Origin: Candidatus Altiarchaeota archaeon
Lineage (GTDB): Archaea; Altiarchaeota; Altiarchaeia; IMC4; SCGC-AAA252-I15
DNA length: 64,000 bases
Reading direction: 5' to 3'
Assembly: GCA_043800255.1 (NCBI GenBank)
Contig: JAZDNF010000009.1
Location: 160,001 to 224,000 of the forward strand
Part shown: piece after piece, positions 29,594-40,188 of the stretch
Numbering within the stretch: the stretch's first letter is position 1
Layout of the letters: the number at the start of each line of letters is the position of its first letter
Notes under the pieces: generated by a model
Told to the model about the DNA's origin: nothing
What the model saw: only the letters and a program-made list of their open reading frames with translations
Databases searched by the model: none
Made by a program: the position numbers and the translations under genes

Positions 29594-29628
29594 ACAGATA
29601 CTCGCTGGTTCAAATCCCGATCGGGGCG
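29593..29628 (+). repeat. att-like tRNA 3'-end fragment (left boundary)
   Basis: GGTTCAAATCCCGATCGGGGCG is a T-loop plus acceptor 3' strand; no tRNA 5' half upstream. Confidence 0.6.
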
Positions 29629-29654
29629 TCCAACCCGTAGACCCAATTTAGGGG

Positions 29655-30986
29655 CTAATTGACACCCCTAATCTCCTCGTACTTGTAATCATCAGCAATG
29701 TTGAGATAACCCCCTTGATACCCAAGGATATGGAGTAATAGCCTATCGATAAAATGGATGAGCCGGTGATTAATCTCAAGGTGTTCTTTAGTATCGTCAG
29801 GATACATCCCGCGATGTATGAAATGCTTTCTTAGCCCATACAATTCTTGCTCACCCTGTTTATACTCCATACCAAAATCTCCCATCAACTTGTTTATAGA
29901 GTCGGGTAATGTGGGGTAAGAATATCCCACTTCCTCGGCGATTTTTCTGATTGTTTCCTCCCCGAGATTATGGCTCGATGGTAGTATTTCATTTAGCTTT
30001 TTGATGTTTGACTTGGTTAGACTAGCTACTATTGGATTGCCATTTTTTTCGTAATACTGCTGTGCCTTGCTTGAAAGACATTCGAGGAGAATAAACCCGA
30101 AAAGACAACGAATATCCATAATTGAACCCGTTTTCATTAGCAGGTAATAGTCGATAATCACTGGAAGATTAAAAGAATCTTTGTATTTTAGATAATCCTC
30201 GTAGGTCTGCTCAACAAATTCTTTAATCTCCTCAGTAGGATGCTCGCGTATCAAAGAATCCAACCCATTGTAACGGTCAACTCTACGTATATAACTATTC
30301 TCCCCTATAACTTTCTCTCCATCAATTTTTCGCTCTATAAGCGGCACGATCGAATTACCCATCGCCAAAGATAGCAATATGCAGATATTTTTCACAATCT
30401 CAGACAAATGTTCGAATTCATCAAACCGTGCTTTTACAACGATTCTGGCCGTTATCGCAAAAGGATTGTCTTTCCTCTTCAAGCACTTCACAATATCTTC
30501 ATAATTCTGGATATGCTGAAACGTAAATTCGTATCCCTCAAGCGAAATAGTGAATCTATCTAATCGAGTAACCCCATCTGAATGTTTAGTGTAGTCGCAT
30601 CCGGTAAATACAAAATTACTTACGAGAAACTCTAACTTCTGCTCATCTGAATCCTTTGAATCCCGATCGATGGTCATAAAGTAGGCATTGTATATTTTTG
30701 GCAGAGGCTTTCCTCTCTTGAGGCCCCCTTTTGATGTTAAATAAAGCTCGTTAATCTTGATTCTCCTTCCATCTGACAAGATTCCTTCAAGAGATGCTTT
30801 CTCTGGTAACTCGTGAAAAAGTCCGTTCAATGCATCGGGCAGACTTGAATCGCCCTCCTTTTCATGAAAATGTACCTTTAAAGGCTTATCAATATAGCGA
30901 ATTACTTCAAATTGCCCCTCAGAGTCTCCTTCACGGGTTGATAGTTTACCTGTTCCCTCTATCTTGTCAATAATGTTTTGGCACAT
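29655..30986 (-). CDS. ApeA/YopA-like protein with C-terminal HEPN motif (putative RNase)
   Basis: Beta-rich N-terminus; LLECL helix; RKHFIH matches the Rx4H HEPN motif. Confidence 0.6.
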   Translation of the reverse strand: MCQNIIDKIEGTGKLSTREGDSEGQFEVIRYIDKPLKVHFHEKEGDSSLPDALNGLFHELPEKASLEGILSDGRRIKINELYLTSKGGLKRGKPLPKIYNAYFMTIDRDSKDSDEQKLEFLVSNFVFTGCDYTKHSDGVTRLDRFTISLEGYEFTFQHIQNYEDIVKCLKRKDNPFAITARIVVKARFDEFEHLSEIVKNICILLSLAMGNSIVPLIERKIDGEKVIGENSYIRRVDRYNGLDSLIREHPTEEIKEFVEQTYEDYLKYKDSFNLPVIIDYYLLMKTGSIMDIRCLFGFILLECLSSKAQQYYEKNGNPIVASLTKSNIKKLNEILPSSHNLGEETIRKIAEEVGYSYPTLPDSINKLMGDFGMEYKQGEQELYGLRKHFIHRGMYPDDTKEHLEINHRLIHFIDRLLLHILGYQGGYLNIADDYKYEEIRGVN

Positions 30987-31020
30987 TTCTTTTTACTCAC
31001 CTATTTTATCAGGCCACTAT

Positions 31021-32216
31021 TTAATTGTTCGATTTCAATGGTAAAGTCCCTTCCTTGAATTTTGTCTCTAGCCAGCCTCTGAATTCCTGGTTTTTGTACA
31101 GTTCTACGAAGAATTTTCTGGCTTCTTGTTCTTCCTGTTCAATTGCTCCGAGGGCTTCTGGGATTAGGGGCGTTGCGCATCGGTTGCAGAACCAGCCGTC
31201 TGGGGGGTTGACTTTGTTGCATTTGCTGCATTTCCTCGGTTCCCTGGTCTCTGTGTGTTCTTTGGGTTTGATGCCATTCATCCCCAATATAACGCTGTCT
31301 ACGTCCCGGCCGCTTAGGTGGACGTAGGTTGCTGCCATGTCTGAGCCCATTATCCACCCGAAGAAGGCGCAGAGCTGGCTTTCAGTCATTACTTTAGCGA
31401 GTTCCGTTGCCCGGCTGTGTCTGAAGTTGTGGGGGTAACATTTGTTTAATGGTATTCCTACTTGTATGCCTTTTTTCTTTATCATCTGCCGTATCGCGTC
31501 GTATCTAATGGGCTTCTTGTATTGGAAGTCTATCCATAGCGGGGAGTCAATGTCGTCGCCGTAGGGGTGGTTTCTGATCCAGACTCGCAGGTATGGTTCC
31601 GGCTCCAGGACGAGTATGCTTCTTGCTCCGGTCTTTCCTTTTTGTACGTGGACCCGAACCCCGTTTTCCTCAAACACTATGTCCTTTATCCGAAGCTCTC
31701 CCAGTTCCCCAACCCTTAATCCGCCATAATAAAGCAGGGGTATTATGGCCCGATCACGGTCGAACTTGCATGCCCTAATCAATTGGTCAACTTCCGAGAT
31801 TGACAGGAGCTGTTCTGGGAGTTTTTTGTCTCTTCTTTTGACCGAGCATTTTATGAAATCTACCTTTTCAGGGGGTTTGCCTCCGTTCATTACCTTGTAA
31901 AATTTCTTTAGGCAGACCTTCAGGTCTTTTTTGGTTTCTGCTGCGGAGTCGCAATAGTTTATCCCTATGACCAGCTCTCTGAGGTCTTTCTCTGTGGCGT
32001 CTGGGAAGTCGAATTTGTAATCTGTTAGGCGCATAAGCTTTCCGAACATGCCATAGTATTTGCGGATGCGCATTTCCCCGATATTCTCGGAGGCTAGCAG
32101 GTTGACGAACTCAGTTATTACGTCCTGTTTTTCTGGCTGATTTTTGGGTTTAGGTTGAACCGGTTCTTCTCATATCCTACCCCATATTTGCCCCGATATA
32201 TTGAGTTAGCGTCCAT
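31021..32216 (-). pseudogene. Tyrosine recombinase/integrase with C-terminal Zn ribbon, frameshifted near the N-terminus (main ORF 31021-32073)
   Basis: GLRVGEL, KGKTG, HNFRHSRAT, FFGW, TYVHL and CSKC..CNRC; the N-terminal 32 codons (32118-32216) are in another frame. Confidence 0.8.
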
Positions 32217-32430
32217 TTTCCCTCAAACACCTGCAGGCATCATCCCAAGACAGCCCACAGCCCCTGATAAGCCGCCTGAACAACAATATATGCTCCGGGA
32301 GGGCCTTCTCCAACAAAACCTCAAAATCCTCATCCACACAAACATACAGGAAGCCAAACCACTTGTCAGTATCGAACAACCCAGACGGCCCGAAATTAAG
32401 CTCCCGGCTGCTAAACGCTAAACTAGCCAT
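32206..32430 (-). CDS. Small hypothetical protein coupled to the integrase
   Basis: Its 3' end overlaps the integrase ATG at 32216. Confidence 0.45.
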   Translation of the reverse strand: MASLAFSSRELNFGPSGLFDTDKWFGFLYVCVDEDFEVLLEKALPEHILLFRRLIRGCGLSWDDACRCLRENGR

Positions 32431-32731
32431 TATCCCACGTACACCACGTGAGGCACACAACTATAAAAACGACTAGGGTTCCGACAAGAAGAGTGAGATC
32501 TTGATTTGTTTCCAGAGGAGTAGCTCGGCTTCAAATCCGATAGGGGATAATATCCATGGTTGCGACTTGTGGTATGGGCACGGGTATGTTATAGCCTATT
32601 CTCTCTTTTCGTTGAGTAATACTAACCGAGAAGATAATTTATATGTCCCAGTACCATTTCTAGCTATATGGCCAAAAAAATAACCTTTTTAGCCAAAACA
32701 AAAGTAAAGAAAAGAGTTTCTTTTAGGTCAG

Positions 32732-33391
32732 GTGGAAGAAAGATATCCTTTACTGCAAAATTGCCTTCTAGGAGGAGGAAAAGAGTTACATTTTATGCAA
32801 GATGATAAAATGACACTGAATGTTTATATAGACTCTGATGTTATGATCGCTTCAGAAATTAAAGATGAACAGAATCATGTAGAATCCAAAAAGTTTATGG
32901 ATTATATTATAAAAAGTAGGGGGGAGGATATAAAATTTTTTACTTCCCAGTACACGTTCGTCGAGCTAGCTTCTGCAATGATTCGCAGAACAAAAAAATC
33001 GGATAAGGCATATTCACTACTATATCGTGTAAGAAACTCCTGGAAGAAATTTATTAATCCGTTACCACCCATGGAAAAAATGACCTCCTTCTCAAACTTA
33101 GTAGATAATCTCATAGAAACTGCGATTGGTTTTAAAACACCTGCAGGAGATACCATTCATGCCCATACCTTTGCTGAATATGAGATGGATTATCTTATAA
33201 CTTGGAATATAAAACACTTTGTTGGAATGAGAAGGAAAATAAAAAATATAAAACTTTTAACACCTACGAACGTCCTAAAAGAATTTGAGAAAATTCAGGA
33301 CGGGATACTTCCAAAAAAAGATAAGTATATCCTTAAGGAGACTCTAACAAGATTACTTGAGGAAAGGAATAAGTTAGTGCATCGTAAGTAA
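32732..33391 (+). CDS. PIN-domain protein (real start probably about 32795-32810)
   Basis: YIDSDV, TSQYTFVEL, GDTIHA and ITWNIKHF. Confidence 0.85.
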   Translation: MEERYPLLQNCLLGGGKELHFMQDDKMTLNVYIDSDVMIASEIKDEQNHVESKKFMDYIIKSRGEDIKFFTSQYTFVELASAMIRRTKKSDKAYSLLYRVRNSWKKFINPLPPMEKMTSFSNLVDNLIETAIGFKTPAGDTIHAHTFAEYEMDYLITWNIKHFVGMRRKIKNIKLLTPTNVLKEFEKIQDGILPKKDKYILKETLTRLLEERNKLVHRK

Positions 33392-33424
33392 TACTATAGG
33401 GTGTATACCCGGGGGGAACATTAG

Positions 33425-33919
33425 ATGATAAACTGGCAATACTATCCTAAGTCAGATGATATACCTGCAGCAGTAAAACGTGTTATCGACTGTTTTGAAA
33501 AGTCCAGAGAGAATATAGGGTCGCCAAAAAAGCACCTTCAAAGCAATGAAGTACTGGGCCACATACGAGACAATCTCATAGACATAGGGTTCAAGGTCGA
33601 AGGCCCGGAAAGGATAGTAGTACCTGTCCTCTTTGGCATGAACGGGAAGCTTGAGAAATCCTTCCAGGCAGACGCATACAACGAGAAAGACTCTATAGTC
33701 CTAGAGGTAGAGGCTGGGCGTGGCGTCCTTAACAACCAATTCCTTAAAGACCTCTTCCAGGCTTGCATGATGCACGATGTCAAATACCTGGCCGTAGCAG
33801 TGAGGAACAATTACAAGGGCAATAAGGACTTTGGGACAGTAATCGGTTTCTTTGACACACTCTACGCCAGTAGGAGGTTGACACTACCACTAAACGGGAT
33901 ATTAGTAATAGGGTACTAA
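33425..33919 (+). CDS. PD-(D/E)xK restriction-endonuclease-like protein (BglII/BstYI-like)
   Basis: ADAY...VLEVEAGR...NQFLKDL; located next to vsr and dcm. Confidence 0.65.
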   Translation: MINWQYYPKSDDIPAAVKRVIDCFEKSRENIGSPKKHLQSNEVLGHIRDNLIDIGFKVEGPERIVVPVLFGMNGKLEKSFQADAYNEKDSIVLEVEAGRGVLNNQFLKDLFQACMMHDVKYLAVAVRNNYKGNKDFGTVIGFFDTLYASRRLTLPLNGILVIGY

Positions 33920-33961
33920 GCTGTAACACCACTCGATACAACAGTCCTTGGGGATGCTTAT

Positions 33962-34387
33962 ATGACGGCTAAGTTCACTAAACTATCGCCACCATCTAAG
34001 GCCACGACGAATGTCATGAAGGCCAACAGGCCGGAGGACACTCAACCTGAGCTTATCATGCGTCAGGCACTCCGTAAGGTCGGATTAGGTGGCTATCGGC
34101 TGCATTGGGACGTCCCTGGAAAGCCTGACATAGCCTACCCCGACAAGAAAATTGCTATCTTCGTCCACGGGTGCTTCTGGCATAGATGTCCCTACTGCAA
34201 GTACCCTATGCCAAAGACCAATAGGGCATACTGGGCATGGAAGTTCAGGAGGAACATAAAACGGGACAAGAGGAAGAAGGCCGAGCTTAAGAGATTAGGC
34301 TGGAGAGTATTGAATTTTTGGGAATGCAAGGTGAAGAAGAATACGGATAGATGTGTTGAGAGGGTGAGGGCTTCAATAATTAGATGA
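33962..34387 (+). CDS. vsr: Very short patch repair endonuclease
   Basis: DTQPEL, PGKPDI, FVHGCFWH, NIKRD and LGWRVL.FWEC. Confidence 0.95.
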   Translation: MTAKFTKLSPPSKATTNVMKANRPEDTQPELIMRQALRKVGLGGYRLHWDVPGKPDIAYPDKKIAIFVHGCFWHRCPYCKYPMPKTNRAYWAWKFRRNIKRDKRKKAELKRLGWRVLNFWECKVKKNTDRCVERVRASIIR

Positions 34388-34475
34388 CTCTAGGCCATAA
34401 ACGTACGTTTAATTACCACCCGGTCAGGGGGTTCTTTTAGTATATATTCCAGATATAACTATCGTATAGTTATGG

Positions 34476-35564
34476 GTGGTCATCATGGTCAGCATTGAAG
34501 GTATTGAACCTGTAGAGCAACTTTTCCATAATGTTCGTATTAATGTTTATCCTAAAAAAGTTCGTTTTGAGGATATTAAGTTCTGGAAAGAGAACCTTAG
34601 GACACTTCTAGCTTTTGAACTGCTCGAAAAGGAGAGTAATAAGTCATTAGATGAGCTGACATTAAAAGAGATTACAGAATTTTTAGCTAAGAAAAGGGAA
34701 TTAGCGCTAGAGAAATTAGCTAAATCAATTGAAAGAAATGGAGTGCGTGTGCCGCTGATAATTCTACAAGATGGAACCTTGTTGGATGGGAACCGTAGGT
34801 ATTTTGCTTGTCAGCATTTACTACAAACAAGTGAGTCGAGACCATCTGCCTTAGATTCTATTCCCGTCTGGGTCATTAGAAACTCGGATATTGATGAACG
34901 AAAAAAACAGAAGATACTTGCGGAGGCAAACTTTTTACCAGAAGAGAAAGTCGAGTGGCCATTAGAGGTGAGAGCGAAAGTTATCTATGACTGTGTCACG
35001 TCATGTAAGCAGAGTGGAATGTCAAGGGAAGAGGTATACAAGGAGGTAACTGACCTGTATGGTGTTGATAAAGATACGGTGGACGCATATCTAGATGCAA
35101 TGAAGTTATCAAAGGAGTTCGTGAGGTCTGCGCCTCGAGCTAAAAGAGATTCATACCGAGAAATTGTTCAGGATAAGTTCGTGTATTTCTGGGAGTTCAG
35201 GAACAAGGCATTTACGAAGAAACTTAACTTGAACAAGAGAACGGAATTGCCTAAGGTTAAAAAGATATTTTATTCCATGGTGGCAAATGACCTTTTCAAA
35301 AACCTGAAGCAGGTAGAGCCGATGGCACGTGCCATTAGGGATAGGAGACAATGGGGGATATTACGTGATTCTAATGGTGCCAAGATAGACCAAGTAGAAG
35401 CGTTGTATAAGAGCGAAAAGGCCATTCGGTCTGCAGAAGACAAAATCAGAAACTTCAATAGCTGGTTGAATGAACTAAACACCAAGGCACTTTCTGAGGT
35501 TTCTATTACTCTGCTAAAGAAAACGATTGAAAAATGCCAGGGTATCTTAAAAAGAAGGGTATAA
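34476..35564 (+). CDS. ParB/Srx N-terminal domain protein with HTH-like and helical C-terminus
   Basis: ENLR, SIERNGVRVPLII, LLDGNRRY and KVEW. Confidence 0.8.
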   Translation: MVIMVSIEGIEPVEQLFHNVRINVYPKKVRFEDIKFWKENLRTLLAFELLEKESNKSLDELTLKEITEFLAKKRELALEKLAKSIERNGVRVPLIILQDGTLLDGNRRYFACQHLLQTSESRPSALDSIPVWVIRNSDIDERKKQKILAEANFLPEEKVEWPLEVRAKVIYDCVTSCKQSGMSREEVYKEVTDLYGVDKDTVDAYLDAMKLSKEFVRSAPRAKRDSYREIVQDKFVYFWEFRNKAFTKKLNLNKRTELPKVKKIFYSMVANDLFKNLKQVEPMARAIRDRRQWGILRDSNGAKIDQVEALYKSEKAIRSAEDKIRNFNSWLNELNTKALSEVSITLLKKTIEKCQGILKRRV

Positions 35565-35567
35565 AGG

Positions 35568-36728
35568 ATGTCACCAAAAAGGATCCTAGTATTTGCTGGC
35601 ACGAAGTCTCAGACCGGCATTGCAACATTGAGGAGGTTCCCGGGTCTTGAACTTGAAGGAGTAAATGATTTTGATGATATTGCTAGGATGATAACAACAG
35701 AGCCAGCATTAGCAATATTGCCTCTTTGGAACTCCCATGAGGGGGAAATACCAAAGACAAACGTTTTGGATATGGTCTTTGAGAGAGACGTTAAGATCCA
35801 AGAGTTATGGTCTAAGGAGATAACGTTTGAGTTGATATGTAGGCCAGGAACGGCAGAGAAAAACATAAAAAAAGTCATCTCCGTTCGTGTTGCAAAAAGC
35901 CAATGTAGTGAATACCTTGCAGGCAAGGATTTTCAAGAGATGAAATCTACTGTAGAAGCATATAAAGAATTCGAAAAAAGCGAAAACTTTGATGCTGTTC
36001 TTTGCCCCCCAGACCTTTACGAACAAGGCAAGTTCATCCAATTGAGAAACGATGTTTCGAATCCTGCGAACTTCACTACCTTTGGGTTATTGGGTAATGT
36101 AAATTGGAAGCATTGGAGCGGCAAATCCTGGGCACCTTTACGAAGTTATGGGCTGCCTAAGTCATTTATACTCTCAGGGATTGAGATGTCAATCCCATCG
36201 CCTTCTGGACTTTCAGAGGATCAACAAGACTTATTTGACGATATGACCCTGGGAGTGAATCACTTAGATGAGATACCACGGATTATTTTTATTGCGAGAC
36301 GAGGGAGCAGTAGGTGCGGCTTGATATTAGAATCAAAAACGTATACTGACGTATTAATACCCTCTGGTGATAATGGCACTCTTACAGACATTCAAGTAAA
36401 AGAGGAGTTAGGCGAAACAAAAGATTCTTATGTCGGTAACATACTCAATTTTATGGAGGGTAAATTCCCGAACCTTCTAAAGCATGATTTCATTAAGCAT
36501 TTAGGCCACAACACTTGCCTATTTGCATGCCCAACCTTAAATGTTATAACCCATGGTTTTGAGGAAAACCTAACGGAGATGATAGTAAGGAGGACAATTA
36601 ATAAATATTTTGAATTAATAGACAACGGTGTGCCTTGTTCGGATGCTCAGAGGAGACTATTCGAGAAGTATAAACAGAATTACTACGATAAAGGTTTGGG
36701 CTTTATTAATTTCATCAAGGCATGCTAA
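35568..36728 (+). CDS. Prephenate-dehydratase-fold protein with altered active-site motifs and unknown C-terminal region
   Basis: LPLWNSHEG ~ VPIENSxEG; VISVRVAKSQC ~ VYSHPQALAQC; STVEA ~ STAEA; NFTTF ~ NxTRF. Confidence 0.7.
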   Translation: MSPKRILVFAGTKSQTGIATLRRFPGLELEGVNDFDDIARMITTEPALAILPLWNSHEGEIPKTNVLDMVFERDVKIQELWSKEITFELICRPGTAEKNIKKVISVRVAKSQCSEYLAGKDFQEMKSTVEAYKEFEKSENFDAVLCPPDLYEQGKFIQLRNDVSNPANFTTFGLLGNVNWKHWSGKSWAPLRSYGLPKSFILSGIEMSIPSPSGLSEDQQDLFDDMTLGVNHLDEIPRIIFIARRGSSRCGLILESKTYTDVLIPSGDNGTLTDIQVKEELGETKDSYVGNILNFMEGKFPNLLKHDFIKHLGHNTCLFACPTLNVITHGFEENLTEMIVRRTINKYFELIDNGVPCSDAQRRLFEKYKQNYYDKGLGFINFIKAC

Positions 36729-36766
36729 TGTTGTAAGTAAATCCGATGATCTTTTTATCGTTATGC

Positions 36767-37882
36767 TTACATGGAGTGGAGTATACTCTTCCCTATAGCA
36801 TTTGCCAATTTTACCGGGACAGCATTGCCTATTTGTTTGTATTTTTGGGTCAGGCTTCCCTTAAAAACCCATCCTGGGGGGAATCCTTGAACTAGCGCGC
36901 ATTCTCGGTAGGTAAGTGGGCGGGGCTTGTCGGGGTGACAGAGGTTTGTGGCTCGCCCTGAAGGTGTGGTCAGGATTGTTGGGGATGGCTTGTCCCAGGA
37001 TAGCCTGCGGCAGAAGCCGACCTTCCCGCCAGTTGCGTGCCAGCCCTTGCCCATGACCTTTTTTTGCAGCCTGACAGGCAACGCTTTCCAGTTTTCCCCT
37101 GGGCCGACGAGCCCTTTAGAGAATATCTCATGCCGAGTGTCATCATAAGGCAAGTAGTCCACATGTTCCCTTTCACGTAATCCTCGTAAACGCCTTATTG
37201 CTTTCTTAAGTGGCAGATGGTTGTTGTAGTATCTTGCCTTTGGCTTGGCTAGGTCATAGCCCTTCTTGGCCCCTACGATGAAGACACGTTTTCTTAATTG
37301 CGGCGCCCCATAGTCAGCAGCGTTCAACTCCCACATGTGTATCCGGTAGCTGTCCTTCCCTTTATTGCTGAGCGTAAGGTTGAACTCAGCCATGATGGCA
37401 TCCCATGCAGAGCCGAGGCGTTCGTCTTCTGAAAGCCCAGCGCCTTGAGTCCGACGTTTTTCGAGTGGCCTGTGCTTTTTCGCGGCGGATAATATGCCCC
37501 TCACGTTCTCAAAGATGAAGAACTCAGGCCTAATGCCCCAGACTATGTCCAAAAAGTTCTTGAACAACAGGCCCTCCTCGGAAGAGATTGACTGCCTCCG
37601 CCCGACAGTGCTGAATGGCTGGCAAGGGGGACCGCCAGAGACTACTGCGACTTGGCCTTTTTCCAGGCCAGCGATCGTAAGTATCTCCTTGACATTGACG
37701 CCTCTTATATCCTTATTGAGGATACAGTCCCGGAGGCCAGGCCTATTGGCAATGATTGTCTGTACAGCAGTCGGATCCTTCTCGACGCACGCCCGAACAT
37801 TGAAGCCGGCCTGTTCAAGCCCAAGGTCAAGGCCAAAAGCACCTGTAAACAGCGAGACTACCGTTGGTTCCATCAAAGCCAC
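36767..37882 (-). CDS. dcm: DNA (cytosine-5)-methyltransferase
   Basis: SLFTGAFG, GGPPCQ, ENV, QLRKRVF, RECALVQGFP and QIGNAVP. Confidence 0.95.
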   Translation of the reverse strand: MALMEPTVVSLFTGAFGLDLGLEQAGFNVRACVEKDPTAVQTIIANRPGLRDCILNKDIRGVNVKEILTIAGLEKGQVAVVSGGPPCQPFSTVGRRQSISSEEGLLFKNFLDIVWGIRPEFFIFENVRGILSAAKKHRPLEKRRTQGAGLSEDERLGSAWDAIMAEFNLTLSNKGKDSYRIHMWELNAADYGAPQLRKRVFIVGAKKGYDLAKPKARYYNNHLPLKKAIRRLRGLREREHVDYLPYDDTRHEIFSKGLVGPGENWKALPVRLQKKVMGKGWHATGGKVGFCRRLSWDKPSPTILTTPSGRATNLCHPDKPRPLTYRECALVQGFPPGWVFKGSLTQKYKQIGNAVPVKLANAIGKSILHSM

Positions 37883-37906
37883 TTATTGAATGTTGAATAA
37901 TCAGCC

Positions 37907-37933
37907 AACTCATAACTAATTAGGTTATGGGTT
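37907..37933. promoter_or_regulatory. Imperfect palindromic operator next to the dcm TATA box
   Basis: AACTCATAAC-TAATTAG-GTTATGGGTT; minus-strand TATAAATAA at 37932-37940. Confidence 0.5.
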
Positions 37934-38016
37934 ATTTATACATATTAGGTCGGAGCTTTGATCTTATCACGTATTCTACGGCTCAATCTGTTTTGGGTTC
38001 GTAATCGACAAGTGGT

Positions 38017-38556
38017 TTGGCGTCTATATCCTTGTTTATGAAGAAGGTTACTGGTGTTGGGTATGGGCGAGTTGATTTTGATAAGGTGGTGCATGCAAAA
38101 CGGGGTTTAAGCGAGGGGTACATTGATATCCTCTTGAGGAATGGCTATAGACAGATTCGGGATCCTGGGTTTTCTCAGGGTATGGGAACCGCTTATTATA
38201 TCATGAATTTGACTGATGAATCGGACGAGCATTTCATGTTATGTAACCTCCTGCTTGATGAAATCCGGAGGTATACTCCCAGGGCGGAGTATGCTCTTAC
38301 TATGTTGCCGGACATTACCTTCGGCTTGGATGATGGTCGCTGGGTGGCTGTGGAAATCGAAGACAAGCGGAAGAGCGAGGAAGAGCTAGCACCCAAGCTG
38401 ACTAAGATGAGCAACTATAACGATTTCTTCTATGTGGTCACGGACTGGGAGCTTCTGGAGCATTACAGGGAATACGGGCCAACCTTCACCAGAAGGTCTG
38501 TCCGGGACAAAATACGCTCATATTTTCGAGGCGAATCCCAGGCCCTAAATGAGTGA
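38017..38556 (+). CDS. Hypothetical PD-(D/E)xK-like protein
   Basis: ESDEH...LPDITF...VAVEIE. Confidence 0.5.
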   Translation: MASISLFMKKVTGVGYGRVDFDKVVHAKRGLSEGYIDILLRNGYRQIRDPGFSQGMGTAYYIMNLTDESDEHFMLCNLLLDEIRRYTPRAEYALTMLPDITFGLDDGRWVAVEIEDKRKSEEELAPKLTKMSNYNDFFYVVTDWELLEHYREYGPTFTRRSVRDKIRSYFRGESQALNE

Positions 38557-38843
38557 TTAGGGAGTAAATCAAGCTCATTTTCAAACAAAAGCCAACCAAC
38601 GAGTAGATTCTATTCCCTAGAGCTACTCCAACTGCTTTATCAGCTAAACAAGAAGCAAAGCAAAGACTTCCCTGGAGGTATATGTCTACCCCTATCTGGC
38701 GGAGAGTCTATTCCCTACCAGGCTGTTTACTCGAAAACTGGTTCAGTGTCAAAAATACTGGGGCCCCGAAAATCAATAAGTTTTTAAGCTTATGTTCACA
38801 TGTTATACTACTTAATTATGTTAAGTATAAGAGGTGGTTATAA

Positions 38844-39062
38844 ATGAGTAACAAAAACTTGGAAAAAATAAGGGAGGTAGTCAGAACGGAGTGCAATGAG
38901 GAGGGATGCACTATTGGAGAGTTGGCACAAAGGGCAGGCGTTTCACGAAACACTGCACGAGCATATTCGGAAAGGCTGATCGGGGAAGGATACGTAAAAG
39001 TGAGGGAAGTAGGCCCAGCGAAGTTACTTAAATATAATCCCCACTCTGAGAGGGAAAGATAG
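38844..39062 (+). CDS. Small winged-helix DNA-binding protein
   Basis: TIGELAQRAGVSRNTARAY..L...G.V; GAGGTG RBS. Confidence 0.85.
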   Translation: MSNKNLEKIREVVRTECNEEGCTIGELAQRAGVSRNTARAYSERLIGEGYVKVREVGPAKLLKYNPHSERER

Positions 39063-39063
39063 A

Positions 39064-39216
39064 ATGGACGAGAAAAAAATCGAGCAACTATTTGATGCCG
39101 TATGCGGGAAAAAAAGAGATAGATGCACCTGTAAATTAGTAGGTGAAACAGGACAGGTTGACTTGATACCCATCGAGAGCACCAAGATAGTATGTGAGAG
39201 GATAATCTTCCCTTGA
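39064..39216 (+). CDS. Putative 50-aa Cys-containing protein (not in the ORF track)
   Basis: MDEKKIEQLFDAVCGKKRDRCTCKLVGE...; starts 1 nt after the wHTH stop. Confidence 0.5.
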   Translation: MDEKKIEQLFDAVCGKKRDRCTCKLVGETGQVDLIPIESTKIVCERIIFP

Positions 39217-39509
39217 TGTTAAATTTCTCCGAGGCTTTGAAGCCTTAGACAGCGCGACATCAGGCCGCCACTCTTGTTCCCGTTGTACATTTGTTTGTTC
39301 TGGTGCAACCTAGCCTTTTGGTAGGGGGATCGGCTTTCAGGACATACCATCAAGCCCTAGATATAGCCCAGATATACTGTTGGCCCCCGTTCTTGGTTGT
39401 CTGTTGGTGGTTTCGATCGGGGCGATTACATAGTGATTGTTCAGTATTTTGAGCTTTTAGAGCGTATAATTCGTGCTGTCTAAACCTCTTGGGGGATTTG
39501 AACACTTTG

Positions 39510-39935
39510 TTAGCGTTTTTTGATGAATTCCTGCGGGGTTAATATCCGTATGCCTTTGTGTTCTTTGAGTTTTAACAGGTGCTGGTCGCCTGTGATTATA
39601 TAGTCTGCTTTTGCTTCGATCGCGCATTCAAGTATTCTGTTGTCTGCTGGATCCTCTCGGATTACTTCAAGTTTATGTCGTGGAGTAATCTTGACTGATA
39701 GCTCTTCGACTAATGCGATGAATCTTTTTCGTTCTGGTTCAGGGACCCTATCAGCTATCTTCTTGCGACATGTAACTCTTGTATATTCCCCTAGGATATC
39801 ATCCGATATATAGTTGATGATAATCCCTTCCGCAACGTTTTTAAGGATTCCTGATAGTTCACTACTTGGGTTGATTAGTGTTGATATAAGGATATTCGTG
39901 TCAAGTACGACCCTAATGGCCTTTGCGATAGGCAT
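39510..39935 (-). CDS. PIN-family toxin (VapC-like)
   Basis: VVLDTNILIS, DPADNRILECA and ITGDQHLL. Confidence 0.92.
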   Translation of the reverse strand: MPIAKAIRVVLDTNILISTLINPSSELSGILKNVAEGIIINYISDDILGEYTRVTCRKKIADRVPEPERKRFIALVEELSVKITPRHKLEVIREDPADNRILECAIEAKADYIITGDQHLLKLKEHKGIRILTPQEFIKKR

Positions 39936-40188
39936 TTATCTCCTCCTCTATCTCCTTAGATGTTAGGCCTCCTGTTCTCCGTAATATCCTTTGTCGTATC
40001 CCAAGTAACTCGGATACCACCTTCTGTCTGTCGACCTTCTTTAGGATTATTGTCTCATCATCCACCGCGCCGACCATGAATAATGCGTCCTTTCCGACCT
40101 TCAGCCTATCTCTGATGGTTTGGGGGATGACTATCTGACCCCGGGTGGACATCTTGGCAGGCTCTACAGTGATATTCCCATAAGCCAT
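39913..40188 (-). CDS. AbrB/MazE-family antitoxin
   Basis: KMSTRGQIVIPQTIR; overlaps the toxin start. Confidence 0.9.
   Translation of the reverse strand: MAYGNITVEPAKMSTRGQIVIPQTIRDRLKVGKDALFMVGAVDDETIILKKVDRQKVVSELLGIRQRILRRTGGLTSKEIEEEINAYRKGH

Follow-up and report, generated by a model that had tools for sequence, protein, structure and literature searches.

A mobile gene unit of a cytosine methylase, a ParB-like protein and a prephenate dehydratase-like protein as a candidate restriction-like defence system

A 64,000-nucleotide stretch of the genome of a Candidatus Altiarchaeota archaeon (contig JAZDNF010000009.1, positions 160,001 to 224,000, hereafter the window) carries, in an integrase-borne island, two neighbouring genes, one for a ParB-like protein and one for a protein that resembles prephenate dehydratase (PDT). 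The two genes form a conserved unit with a C5 DNA cytosine methylase of one particular clade, with or without a Vsr endonuclease or a DNA glycosylase, and this three-gene module (methylase, ParB-like and PDT-like) of ~3.4 kb is mobile and patchy in its spread. The pair and its methylase are probably an undescribed restriction-like defence system, whose non-methylase subunits would be without precedent. As for its mode of action we lean, with some reserve, toward a methylation-keyed system in which the methylase marks self and the ParB-like and PDT-like proteins act against unmarked DNA.

On the + strand of the window the gene order is orf164, vsr and the open reading frames (ORFs) of the ParB-like and PDT-like proteins, followed by a convergent C5 methylase gene (Table 1). 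The stop codon of the ParB-like gene (TAA, 35562-35564) and the ATG of the PDT-like gene at 35568 leave a gap of 3 bp, and the ATG at 34485 is the probable start of the former gene, giving a protein of 359 aa. Coordinates and Pfam matches agree with an earlier note on this DNA, which had placed the pair, 3 bp apart, between vsr and the convergent methylase gene in an integrase island.

A search with the single PDT-like sequence returned 29 relatives of ~385 aa with 33-57% identity. Pattern scans, limited by the peptide patterns used, gave 13 loci in genomes (one genome for each of 185,579 species) and a further 68 in metagenomes, or 73 unique loci once 8 duplicates had been dropped, and showed no PDT-like relative in viral contigs. 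Wherever there was room for it (at least 1150 bp, 59 unique loci), the ParB-like gene lay directly upstream of the PDT-like gene in 57 cases, and the distance from the ParB-like stop to the PDT-like start was between -8 and +19 nt in 65 of 67 loci. The two loci with no ParB-like gene upstream, L011 and L079, both hold damaged PDT-like genes. L079 is a relic in which only residues 160-386 of the PDT-like protein are left; a 365-aa ORF there was considered as a ParB-like gene and proved not to be one. Across 35 complete modules, a set restricted to genes of full length and methylases scoring above 250 bits, pairwise distances between ParB-like proteins closely followed those between PDT-like proteins (r 0.95, Mantel p 0.001). 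The two genes form a conserved unit, and the partnership that the earlier note had proposed for their products is to this extent borne out.

Out of 1.84 billion proteins, a profile of the PDT-like region after residue 194 picked up only 59 cluster representatives. Long matches measured ~330-406 aa and had the region at ~190-390, the others being shorter pieces, and a PDT domain stood in front of the region in 17 of 19 matches scanned. The ParB-like family is larger and comprises at least 427 clusters at 90% identity. No match to either protein was obtained by tblastn against the plasmids of PLSDB.

The methylase belongs to this unit as well. The 13 genome loci have 92 ORFs in the vicinity of the pair, of which 64 were scanned with Pfam. 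A C5 methylase adjoins the pair in 12 of these loci, the exception being the cut contig of L013. Flanks of 3 kb or more upstream and 1.9 kb or more downstream are available for 21 unique loci; 19 of them hold a methylase of one clade (clade-profile scores 279-683), and L051 and the relic L079 are the two that do not. Pair-linked methylases are 39-85% identical to one another over their full length, and the second methylases found in L005, L006 and L008 are ~27% identical. The window methylase shows 39-64% identity with its pair-linked counterparts elsewhere, against ~27% with the other methylases of those loci, and is the only member of the clade found in the host genome. Since one methylase clade travels with the pair, we count the methylase as part of the unit, which is in this respect restriction-modification-like; the earlier note had taken it as part of the surroundings. 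The methylase gene is placed upstream and co-directional in 21 of the 35 complete modules, downstream and convergent in 12, downstream and co-directional in 1 and otherwise in 1. Such variable orientation is also found in restriction-modification systems, and we count it in favour of a restriction-like reading. Palindrome counts in the host genome (observed/expected: GATC 0.41, CTAG 0.63, GGWCC 0.64, GGCC 0.70), in which GATC is strongly and GGWCC and GGCC are moderately avoided, showed no word that stood out so as to be tied to the window methylase or to a particular system.

Vsr, a T:G mismatch endonuclease that repairs deaminated 5-methylcytosine, is encoded in 19 of the 35 complete modules and is an optional accessory. 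In three loci that lack it (L008, L020, L040) an HhH-GPD glycosylase adjoins the module instead. HhH-GPD glycosylases repair T:G mismatches beside 5-methylcytosine methylases, a role on which our literature search gave no paper. The small protein orf164 may be another optional accessory, having homologs directly beside the module in L030 (1542-2084) and L034 (4713-5219) only, which are 59-60% identical to it (E ~1e-57 to 1e-59). Searches of Pfam, NCBIfam, PADLOC and PDB sequences gave no match for it; to the eye, and from the letters alone, a conserved D..EVE..K-type pattern in it recalls PD-(D/E)XK nucleases.

The association with one methylase clade also bears on a different proposal, in which the pair would act on its own in defence or addiction, for example with the ParB-like protein as a sensor that switches on a metabolite-directed PDT-like effector; such a module would not be keyed to methylation and would only share mobile elements with a methylase-Vsr cassette. 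It would account for the pair of L051, which has no methylase nearby, and for the weak co-variation of methylase and pair described below. As a lead only, a structure look-up with the ParB-like protein returned, among the proteins alike over the whole length, a cluster with a fused HEPN_Swt1 domain, which hints at a sensor with swappable effectors. However, chance clustering in defence islands would bring varied neighbours and not the single clade found directly beside the pair in nearly all well-flanked loci, and the same clade accompanies distant relatives of the ParB-like protein that have a SNF2 helicase as partner. We therefore hold the stand-alone module to be improbable.

By sequence, residues 18-177 of the PDT-like protein match the Pfam PDT domain PF00800 (E 1.4e-18, 67.7 bits against a cut-off of 25.2), with scores against the NCBIfam PDT equivalogs of 43.1 bits for NF008865 (cut-off 219) and 35 bits for NF008866 (cut-off 359). 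ENS, SHPQ and TRF are conserved active-site motifs of PDT, with ENS and TRF lining the active site. In an alignment with three real PDTs, the host's own among them, ENS is replaced by WNS, SHPHAxAQC by SVRVAKSQC and TRF by TTF, which are the same changes (ENS to WNS, SHPQ to SVRV, TRF to TTF) that the earlier note had read from the letters. Asn55, Ser56, Gly59, Ser105, Gln112, Thr170 and Phe172 are common to the PDT-like protein and the real PDTs, and across the family the motifs read WNS, SVxVA and T(T/S)F.

The AlphaFold model of the PDT-like protein (predicted local distance difference test, pLDDT, 91.5; predicted template modelling score, pTM, 0.89) was compared with 48,161 solved chains. 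Its top match was Chlorobium PDT (2qmx_B, Z 17.2, root mean square deviation [rmsd] 3.6, 255 residues), with model residues 4-291 aligned to chain residues 4-279, followed by PDT 3mwb (Z 17.0), 3luy (Z 16.4) and PDT 2qmw (Z 16.1). The PDT-fold acylase GqqA (7alz), which we take from its PDB title to be a PDT homolog with another activity, scored Z 12.2, and periplasmic binding proteins scored Z 8.9 or less. Because the alignment spans the whole PDT crystal chain, the PDT domain is predicted to be followed by an ACT-like domain, which in the model is kept at ~residues 195-291. The earlier note had instead seen ~200 aa of unrecognised sequence in place of the ACT domain, a description that the model does not bear out: it aligns with the whole PDT chain to residue 291 and the family-specific addition would be only a tail of ~95 residues (~292-386), modelled as three short strands and two long helices. 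The ACT-like part is seen solely by structure, as the protein has no Pfam ACT match, an ESRP-type motif is absent, and hhalign of the PDT-like family against three real PDTs covers the PDT domain only. For the tail, a look-up in the ESM Atlas gave a poor Atlas model (pLDDT 0.55) with neighbours at TM 0.36 or less, and a PDB sequence search with the tail profile gave no credible match. We considered a metal-dependent nuclease site in the tail formed by His311, Cys317, Cys321 and His329 and discarded it, these residues not being kept in relatives with 21-25% identity.

The cleft of the PDT-like protein appears to have been re-tooled and to be under strong constraint, judging from the conservation of its residues. 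An alignment of 57 unique sequences of full length has 35 columns with at most one exception, 22 of them in the PDT domain, and W54, N55, Q112, C113, N165, N168, T170 and F172 are invariant in all 57. When the relatives with 21-25% identity are added, the columns S14, P52, W54, N55, I85, V108, A109, Q112, C113, L145, N165, N168, T170 and F172 remain invariant, together with F241, E255, P322 and G330. The cleft itself, which in real PDTs is the active site, is made up of W54, N55 and S56, Q112 and C113, and N165, N168, F169, T170 and F172. Since the acidic residue of ENS is changed to Trp and the basic residue of TRF to Thr or Ser, we argue for a ligand other than the dicarboxylate prephenate. 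Set beside real PDTs (2qmx, 3mwb, 2qmw; Z 16.1-17.2), the protein shares, as modelled, the PDT plus ACT-like fold and keeps the Asn of ENS, the Ser of SHPQ, the Gln-Cys of AQC and the Thr and Phe of TRF, but it has exchanged the Glu for Trp, lost the His-Pro-His/Gln, replaced the Arg of TRF by Thr or Ser and gained its tail, and its genomic context is a methylase and not amino-acid synthesis. The suggestion of the earlier note that a metabolic fold has been reused as a ligand sensor or effector partner of the ParB-like protein is strengthened by the conserved pair and the re-tooled cleft and amended in two respects, the ACT-like domain being kept in the model and the methylase joining the unit.

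A Pfam PDT match above the cut-off, a PDT fold at Z 16-17 and a first protein of ParB-type fold are also what one would expect of a divergent ordinary PDT for phenylalanine synthesis next to a partition ParB. We give this explanation very little credence. The equivalog scores fall far below their cut-offs and the three motifs are changed. The host has a separate true PDT that scores 188.7 bits on another contig, and the gene of the pair is not the PDT of the host. A PDT-like ortholog was found in none of 40 relatives, where the weak matches are their own PDTs of ~270 aa. The genes beside the pair in the scanned neighbourhoods are methylases, Vsr and other restriction or repair genes and include no aromatic-pathway genes, in keeping with the position outside aromatic amino-acid operons that the earlier note had implied, and neither the neighbours of the pair in the window nor the 64 scanned ORFs of the genome loci include a ParA-type gene.

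The ParB-like protein carries the sequence LLDGNRRY. Its match to Pfam ParB_N (E 0.024, 15.1 bits) is under the cut-off of 26.3; TIGR00180 of NCBIfam matches at E 0.0081, two PHROG ParB-like families at E 3.2e-8 and 4.2e-8, and PDB entry 7bnk at E 0.007 over the GxRR box, where LLDGNRR aligns with GERRWRA. LLDGNRR is invariant in 12 of 12 ParB-like sequences, the distant SNF2-type relatives among them. The AlphaFold model (pLDDT 88.3, pTM 0.74) had its best match in the pNOB8-like ParB-N structure 5k5d (Z 9.2, 214 residues, model 19-298), and further matches in PadC (6ryk, Z 8.5, rmsd 2.3), KorB with cytidine triphosphate (CTP; 8qa8, Z 8.2, rmsd 10.0), Spo0J (Z 6.8) and sulfiredoxin (Z 6.2), while residues ~160-220 matched many helix-turn-helix (HTH) DNA-binding domains at Z ~5. 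Modest as such Z values are, the top four rows are all ParB-family proteins. An N-terminal domain of the nucleoside triphosphate (NTP)-binding ParB type, which includes LLDGNRRY, is followed by an HTH-like region in the centre (~160-220), and the C-terminal part is helical. In the model the protein looks like a full ParB-type protein with N-domain and HTH rather than a bare nuclease module; the earlier assignment to the ParB/Srx superfamily agrees with the fold matches. It resembles the CTP-switch clamps ParB, KorB, PadC and pNOB8 ParB in its predicted N-terminal ParB domain and HTH and in keeping the arginine pair of the GxRR box as GNRR, and it is unlike them in having no parA neighbour or partition context and in its family-specific helical tail of ~150 residues.

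When viral contigs were searched with a profile of the ParB-like protein, 6 loci were returned. In three sister loci (L101, L104, L105) a full-length ParB-like homolog, 22-25% identical, is followed directly by a SNF2-family helicase of 595-608 aa with SNF2-rel_dom and Helicase_C domains, and in L104 and L105 also a ResIII match. These ParB-like homologs share 24 invariant columns, including W37, N40, R42, LLDGNRR and N152-F153. The methylase of the three loci belongs to the pair-linked clade (41-56% identical to its pair-linked members), and L101 and L105 also have an HhH-GPD glycosylase. An upstream ORF of ~230-286 aa is common to all three. Two other loci, L102 and L103, combine another C5 methylase with a ParB-like protein, a SNF2 helicase and a PD-(D/E)XK nuclease. 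No domain is common to the PDT-like family and the SNF2 or HerA-like proteins. Since the sister loci pair the ParB-like protein with a SNF2 helicase, the constant couple seems to be methylase and ParB-like protein, with an exchangeable third protein. It is conceivable, if doubtful, that these loci represent a whole class of restriction-like systems built on a ParB-type CTP/NTP-switch DNA clamp, in place of a classical endonuclease, that reads methylation by the clade and recruits a swappable SNF2 or PDT/ACT subunit.

Decayed copies of the module were also found. L011 has lost the ParB-like gene and the 5' end of the PDT-like gene, with methylase and Vsr intact. L100 has Vsr and a ParB-like protein (52% identity), and its PDT-like gene (1667-1774) ends after ~20-36 codons; downstream lies unrelated DNA that encodes a Dam-type methylase and an ATPase of HerA/DUF87/Zot-like type. 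The PDT-like gene of L100 was apparently interrupted by a mobile element. The HerA/DUF87-like ATPase was considered as an alternative partner of the ParB-like protein and dropped, as tblastn showed 20-36 PDT-like codons and then unrelated DNA, hence an insertion. The decay pattern of L011 and L100 is consistent with a methylation-keyed defence system.

In such a system, the C5 methylase would mark a short motif in host DNA as self, and Vsr, or the HhH-GPD glycosylase elsewhere, would repair the T:G mismatches that arise from 5-methylcytosine. The ParB-like protein may be an NTP-switch DNA binder, the nucleotide probably being CTP, which with its HTH would form the DNA-engaging core of the non-self half. 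The PDT-like protein would work as a unit with it, its cleft binding a ligand other than prephenate, and would gate or carry out the action against unmethylated incoming DNA; in the sister systems a SNF2 translocase would take its place. We infer protection by methylation and action of the pair on DNA, and the same holds for which protein cuts, if either, and for the ligand; gene linkage and co-variation suggest that the ParB-like protein binds the PDT-like protein. GmrS, Osa and a Bacillus ParB-methylase are examples of conflict-system proteins whose ParB/Srx domains are reported, in the excerpts of PMC5512222 and PMC12839542, to act as DNases or nickases under NTP regulation and without sequence specificity, and in an excerpt of PMC12065111 the DUF262-type ParB-like domains are sensors that switch on a nuclease via their NTPase activity.

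Several observations weigh against this scheme. No nuclease family is matched by the ParB-like or the PDT-like protein in Pfam, NCBIfam, PHROGs or PADLOC, and cutting by the pair is assumed by analogy with the behaviour of other ParB/Srx proteins. No fused ParB-PDT form longer than 700 aa was scored, which is weak evidence. Distances among the methylases bear only a weak relation to those of the pair (r 0.33-0.34), and because they track them so loosely we think that methylases have been exchanged among sublineages. In L051 the pair is intact, yet neither the 6.0 kb upstream of it nor the 3.5 kb downstream holds a methylase of the clade; where the methylase would be, the pair adjoins a 692-aa HATPase_c_3 protein and a DUF2971 protein. 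In L002 (5092-6379) a +1 frameshift interrupts the linked methylase at residue 229/230 beside an intact pair, either an error in the sequence of the metagenome-assembled genome (MAG) or a real inactivation. A cell with a classical restriction enzyme would not survive in either state, unless its site is covered by another methylase or the MAG sequence is wrong. A complete PDT plus ACT fold with an invariant cleft of small-molecule type would, as modelled, fit an enzyme or a metabolite sensor better than a DNA reader. Finally, ParB-like proteins serve the modification side of other systems, DpdB being an ATPase that helps base insertion and DndB a regulator according to the excerpts of PMC12839542 and PMC10853773.

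The last points lead to a further explanation, which assigns the pair to the modification half. As an enzyme, the PDT-like protein would make or alter a small-molecule donor or regulator for the C5 methylase, or it would help to load the methylase on DNA in the manner of DpdB, producing an unusual cytosine mark or tuned methylation with no restriction activity of its own. The whole PDT plus ACT fold of the model and the invariant cleft are as expected of an enzyme, the quorum-quenching acylase GqqA (7alz, by its title) puts another catalytic use of the PDT fold on record, and loci such as L051 and L002, with no working methylase next to the pair, would not be lethal. On the other side, the recurrence of Vsr or a T:G glycosylase beside the methylase points to plain 5-methylcytosine, and replacement of the PDT Glu in ENS, His-Pro in SHPQ and Arg in TRF makes prephenate an unlikely substrate. 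The sister systems hold in the place of the PDT-like protein a SNF2 helicase of the restriction-enzyme kind, with its ResIII match, and not an enzyme. DNA hypermodification is typically a phage trait, and no PDT-like relative was seen in viral contigs. We judge a role in modification unlikely, though it deserves to be kept in mind, and continue to favour a methylation-keyed, restriction-like system.

Among known systems, the module comes closest to the type II restriction-modification cassettes with a C5 methylase and Vsr (M-R-V cassettes), with which it shares the adjacency of methylase and Vsr, compactness, mobility, patchiness and varying gene order and orientation; its decayed copies lose the non-methylase genes and keep the methylase. 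It differs from them in having, where the restriction enzyme would sit, ParB-type and PDT plus ACT-type proteins with no recognised nuclease fold, and in two loci with no working neighbouring methylase. GmrSD, SspE and BrxU (DUF262 NTPase and DUF1524 nuclease) likewise combine an NTPase-type module of the ParB/Srx superfamily with a second effector module, and GmrS and GmrD also occur as two separate proteins (excerpt of PMC4619093). The partner is, however, PDT-like rather than HNH or DUF1524, and these systems attack modified DNA and carry no methylase, whereas the present module travels with one; no DUF262 or DUF1524 match to the pair was found in PADLOC or Pfam at E values up to 10. Dpd, with DpdB, and Dnd, with DndB, are alike in having a ParB-superfamily protein in a system built around DNA modification (excerpts of PMC12839542 and PMC10853773), but their mark is 7-deazaguanine or phosphorothioate and is made by other enzymes. 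Lastly, the sister loci L101, L104 and L105 recall DISARM in combining a DNA methylase with a SNF2/ResIII-type helicase; unlike it, they hold a ParB-like protein, and no other DISARM gene was present among the ORFs scanned.

In PADLOC-DB 2.0.0 neither protein of the pair matched any family at E 0.01 or E 10, and only the window methylase and Vsr were recognised, by generic models. The view of the earlier note that the pair corresponds to no already described system is therefore in line with this database, even at E 10. Our literature searches, which did not extend to the supplementary tables of comparative-genomics papers, found no paper that describes the ParB-like/PDT-like pair, and the word 'prephenate' is absent from PMC12839542, PMC12065111, PMC10853773 and PMC5512222. 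Source names given to family members are 'ParB N-terminal domain-containing protein', 'ParB-like chromosome segregation protein Spo0J', 'ParB-like nuclease family protein', 'prephenate dehydratase' and 'hypothetical protein'; where members of the ParB-like family have a name at all, it is the first or the last of these.

Mobility and a patchy distribution also mark the module. Among the sources of the 13 genome loci are Margulisiibacteriota, Verrucomicrobiota, Bifidobacteriaceae, Lentisphaerota, Fibrobacterota, Pseudomonadota and other groups, yet within the host phylum the PDT-like tail domain was found in 1 of 61 genomes, that of the host (G000), and a full-length ParB-like member in 1 of 401 genomes of another phylum, the centre genome. 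In the window, GC content is 0.385-0.43 across most of 30-37 kb against ~0.50-0.55 outside. A radical-SAM gene (ending at ~29590) and an SMC-like gene (starting at ~40980) are 11.4 kb apart here and 0.6-1.2 kb apart in two relatives, and for this reason we take the stretch from 29.6 to 40.98 kb to be an insertion.

Copies of the integrase DNA, 76-85% identical, occur elsewhere in the relatives G002, G012 (two copies) and G027. There is a related integrase element in G012 (L097, G012:C4:2500-10500), which shares 29600-29680, the integrase, 38068-38526 and 39249-39425 with the window; the ORF at 38068-38526, orf179, is 44% identical in amino acids to its counterpart there. Between integrase and orf179 the G012 element carries Vsr, another C5 methylase (25% identical), a 634-aa HATPase_c_3 protein and two ORFs of no assigned family. 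Because it has this different set of genes there, the same slot appears to hold alternative Vsr-methylase-effector cargoes. The stretch 39250-39425 of the window recurs in several relatives at 76-88% identity, sometimes near copies of the same integrase family, and is probably the conserved right end of this family of elements. Both ends (29605-29628 and 39406-39424), which are approximate, hold a stretch containing GATCGGGGCG, a weak 11-nt direct repeat (E 0.12). ARAGORN found no tRNA and Rfam no match at the ends; the left one resembles a tRNA 3' end only by eye. The 443-aa ORF at the left of the element is absent from the related G012 element, and the PIN toxin-antitoxin pair lies just to the right of the conserved end, still within the 11.4-kb insertion.

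Table 1. Features of the window around the ParB-like/PDT-like pair (positions are those of the window)
Feature	Position	Strand	Remarks
Integrase-borne element, approximate extent	29600..39425	.	inside 11.4 kb insertion (~29.6-40.98 kb)
443-aa ORF, no family match	29655-30986	-	GC ~0.385; between left end and integrase
Tyrosine integrase	31021..32073	-	PF00589, E 1.4e-18
219-aa ORF, faint PIN-domain matches	32732-33391	+	E 0.05-0.07; not conserved beside module elsewhere
orf164, small protein of unknown family	33425..33919	+	directly 5' of vsr
vsr	33962..34387	+	PF03852, E 6.4e-18
ParB-like gene	34476..35564	+	362 aa from GTG; public gene call from ATG 34485, 359 aa
PDT-like gene	35568..36728	+	386 aa
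C5 DNA cytosine methylase	36767..37882	-	PF00145, E 2.2e-59
PIN-domain toxin and MazE/AbrB-type antitoxin	39510-40188	-	toxin PF13470, E 7.5e-23; antitoxin E 2e-4

If the favoured reading is true, self/non-self systems keyed to cytosine methylation would gain a branch with a ParB-type switch and a PDT/ACT metabolic fold, two types of protein that are not known from restriction enzymes. ParB biology, that is, CTP-dependent clamping, would extend from partition and gene silencing to immunity, and the PDT-like protein would be a second clear case, after the acylase GqqA, of the PDT fold in a new job. Should the more tentative reading of a clamp-based class also be true, this would be the first use of this metabolic fold as a gate or effector in DNA defence. 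The invariant cleft defines a ligand question that can be tested directly, with the SNF2-type sister systems as a natural comparison, and at only three genes the module lends itself to tests in laboratory hosts. The module is rare and found mostly in uncultured lineages, which may explain how it has escaped screens.

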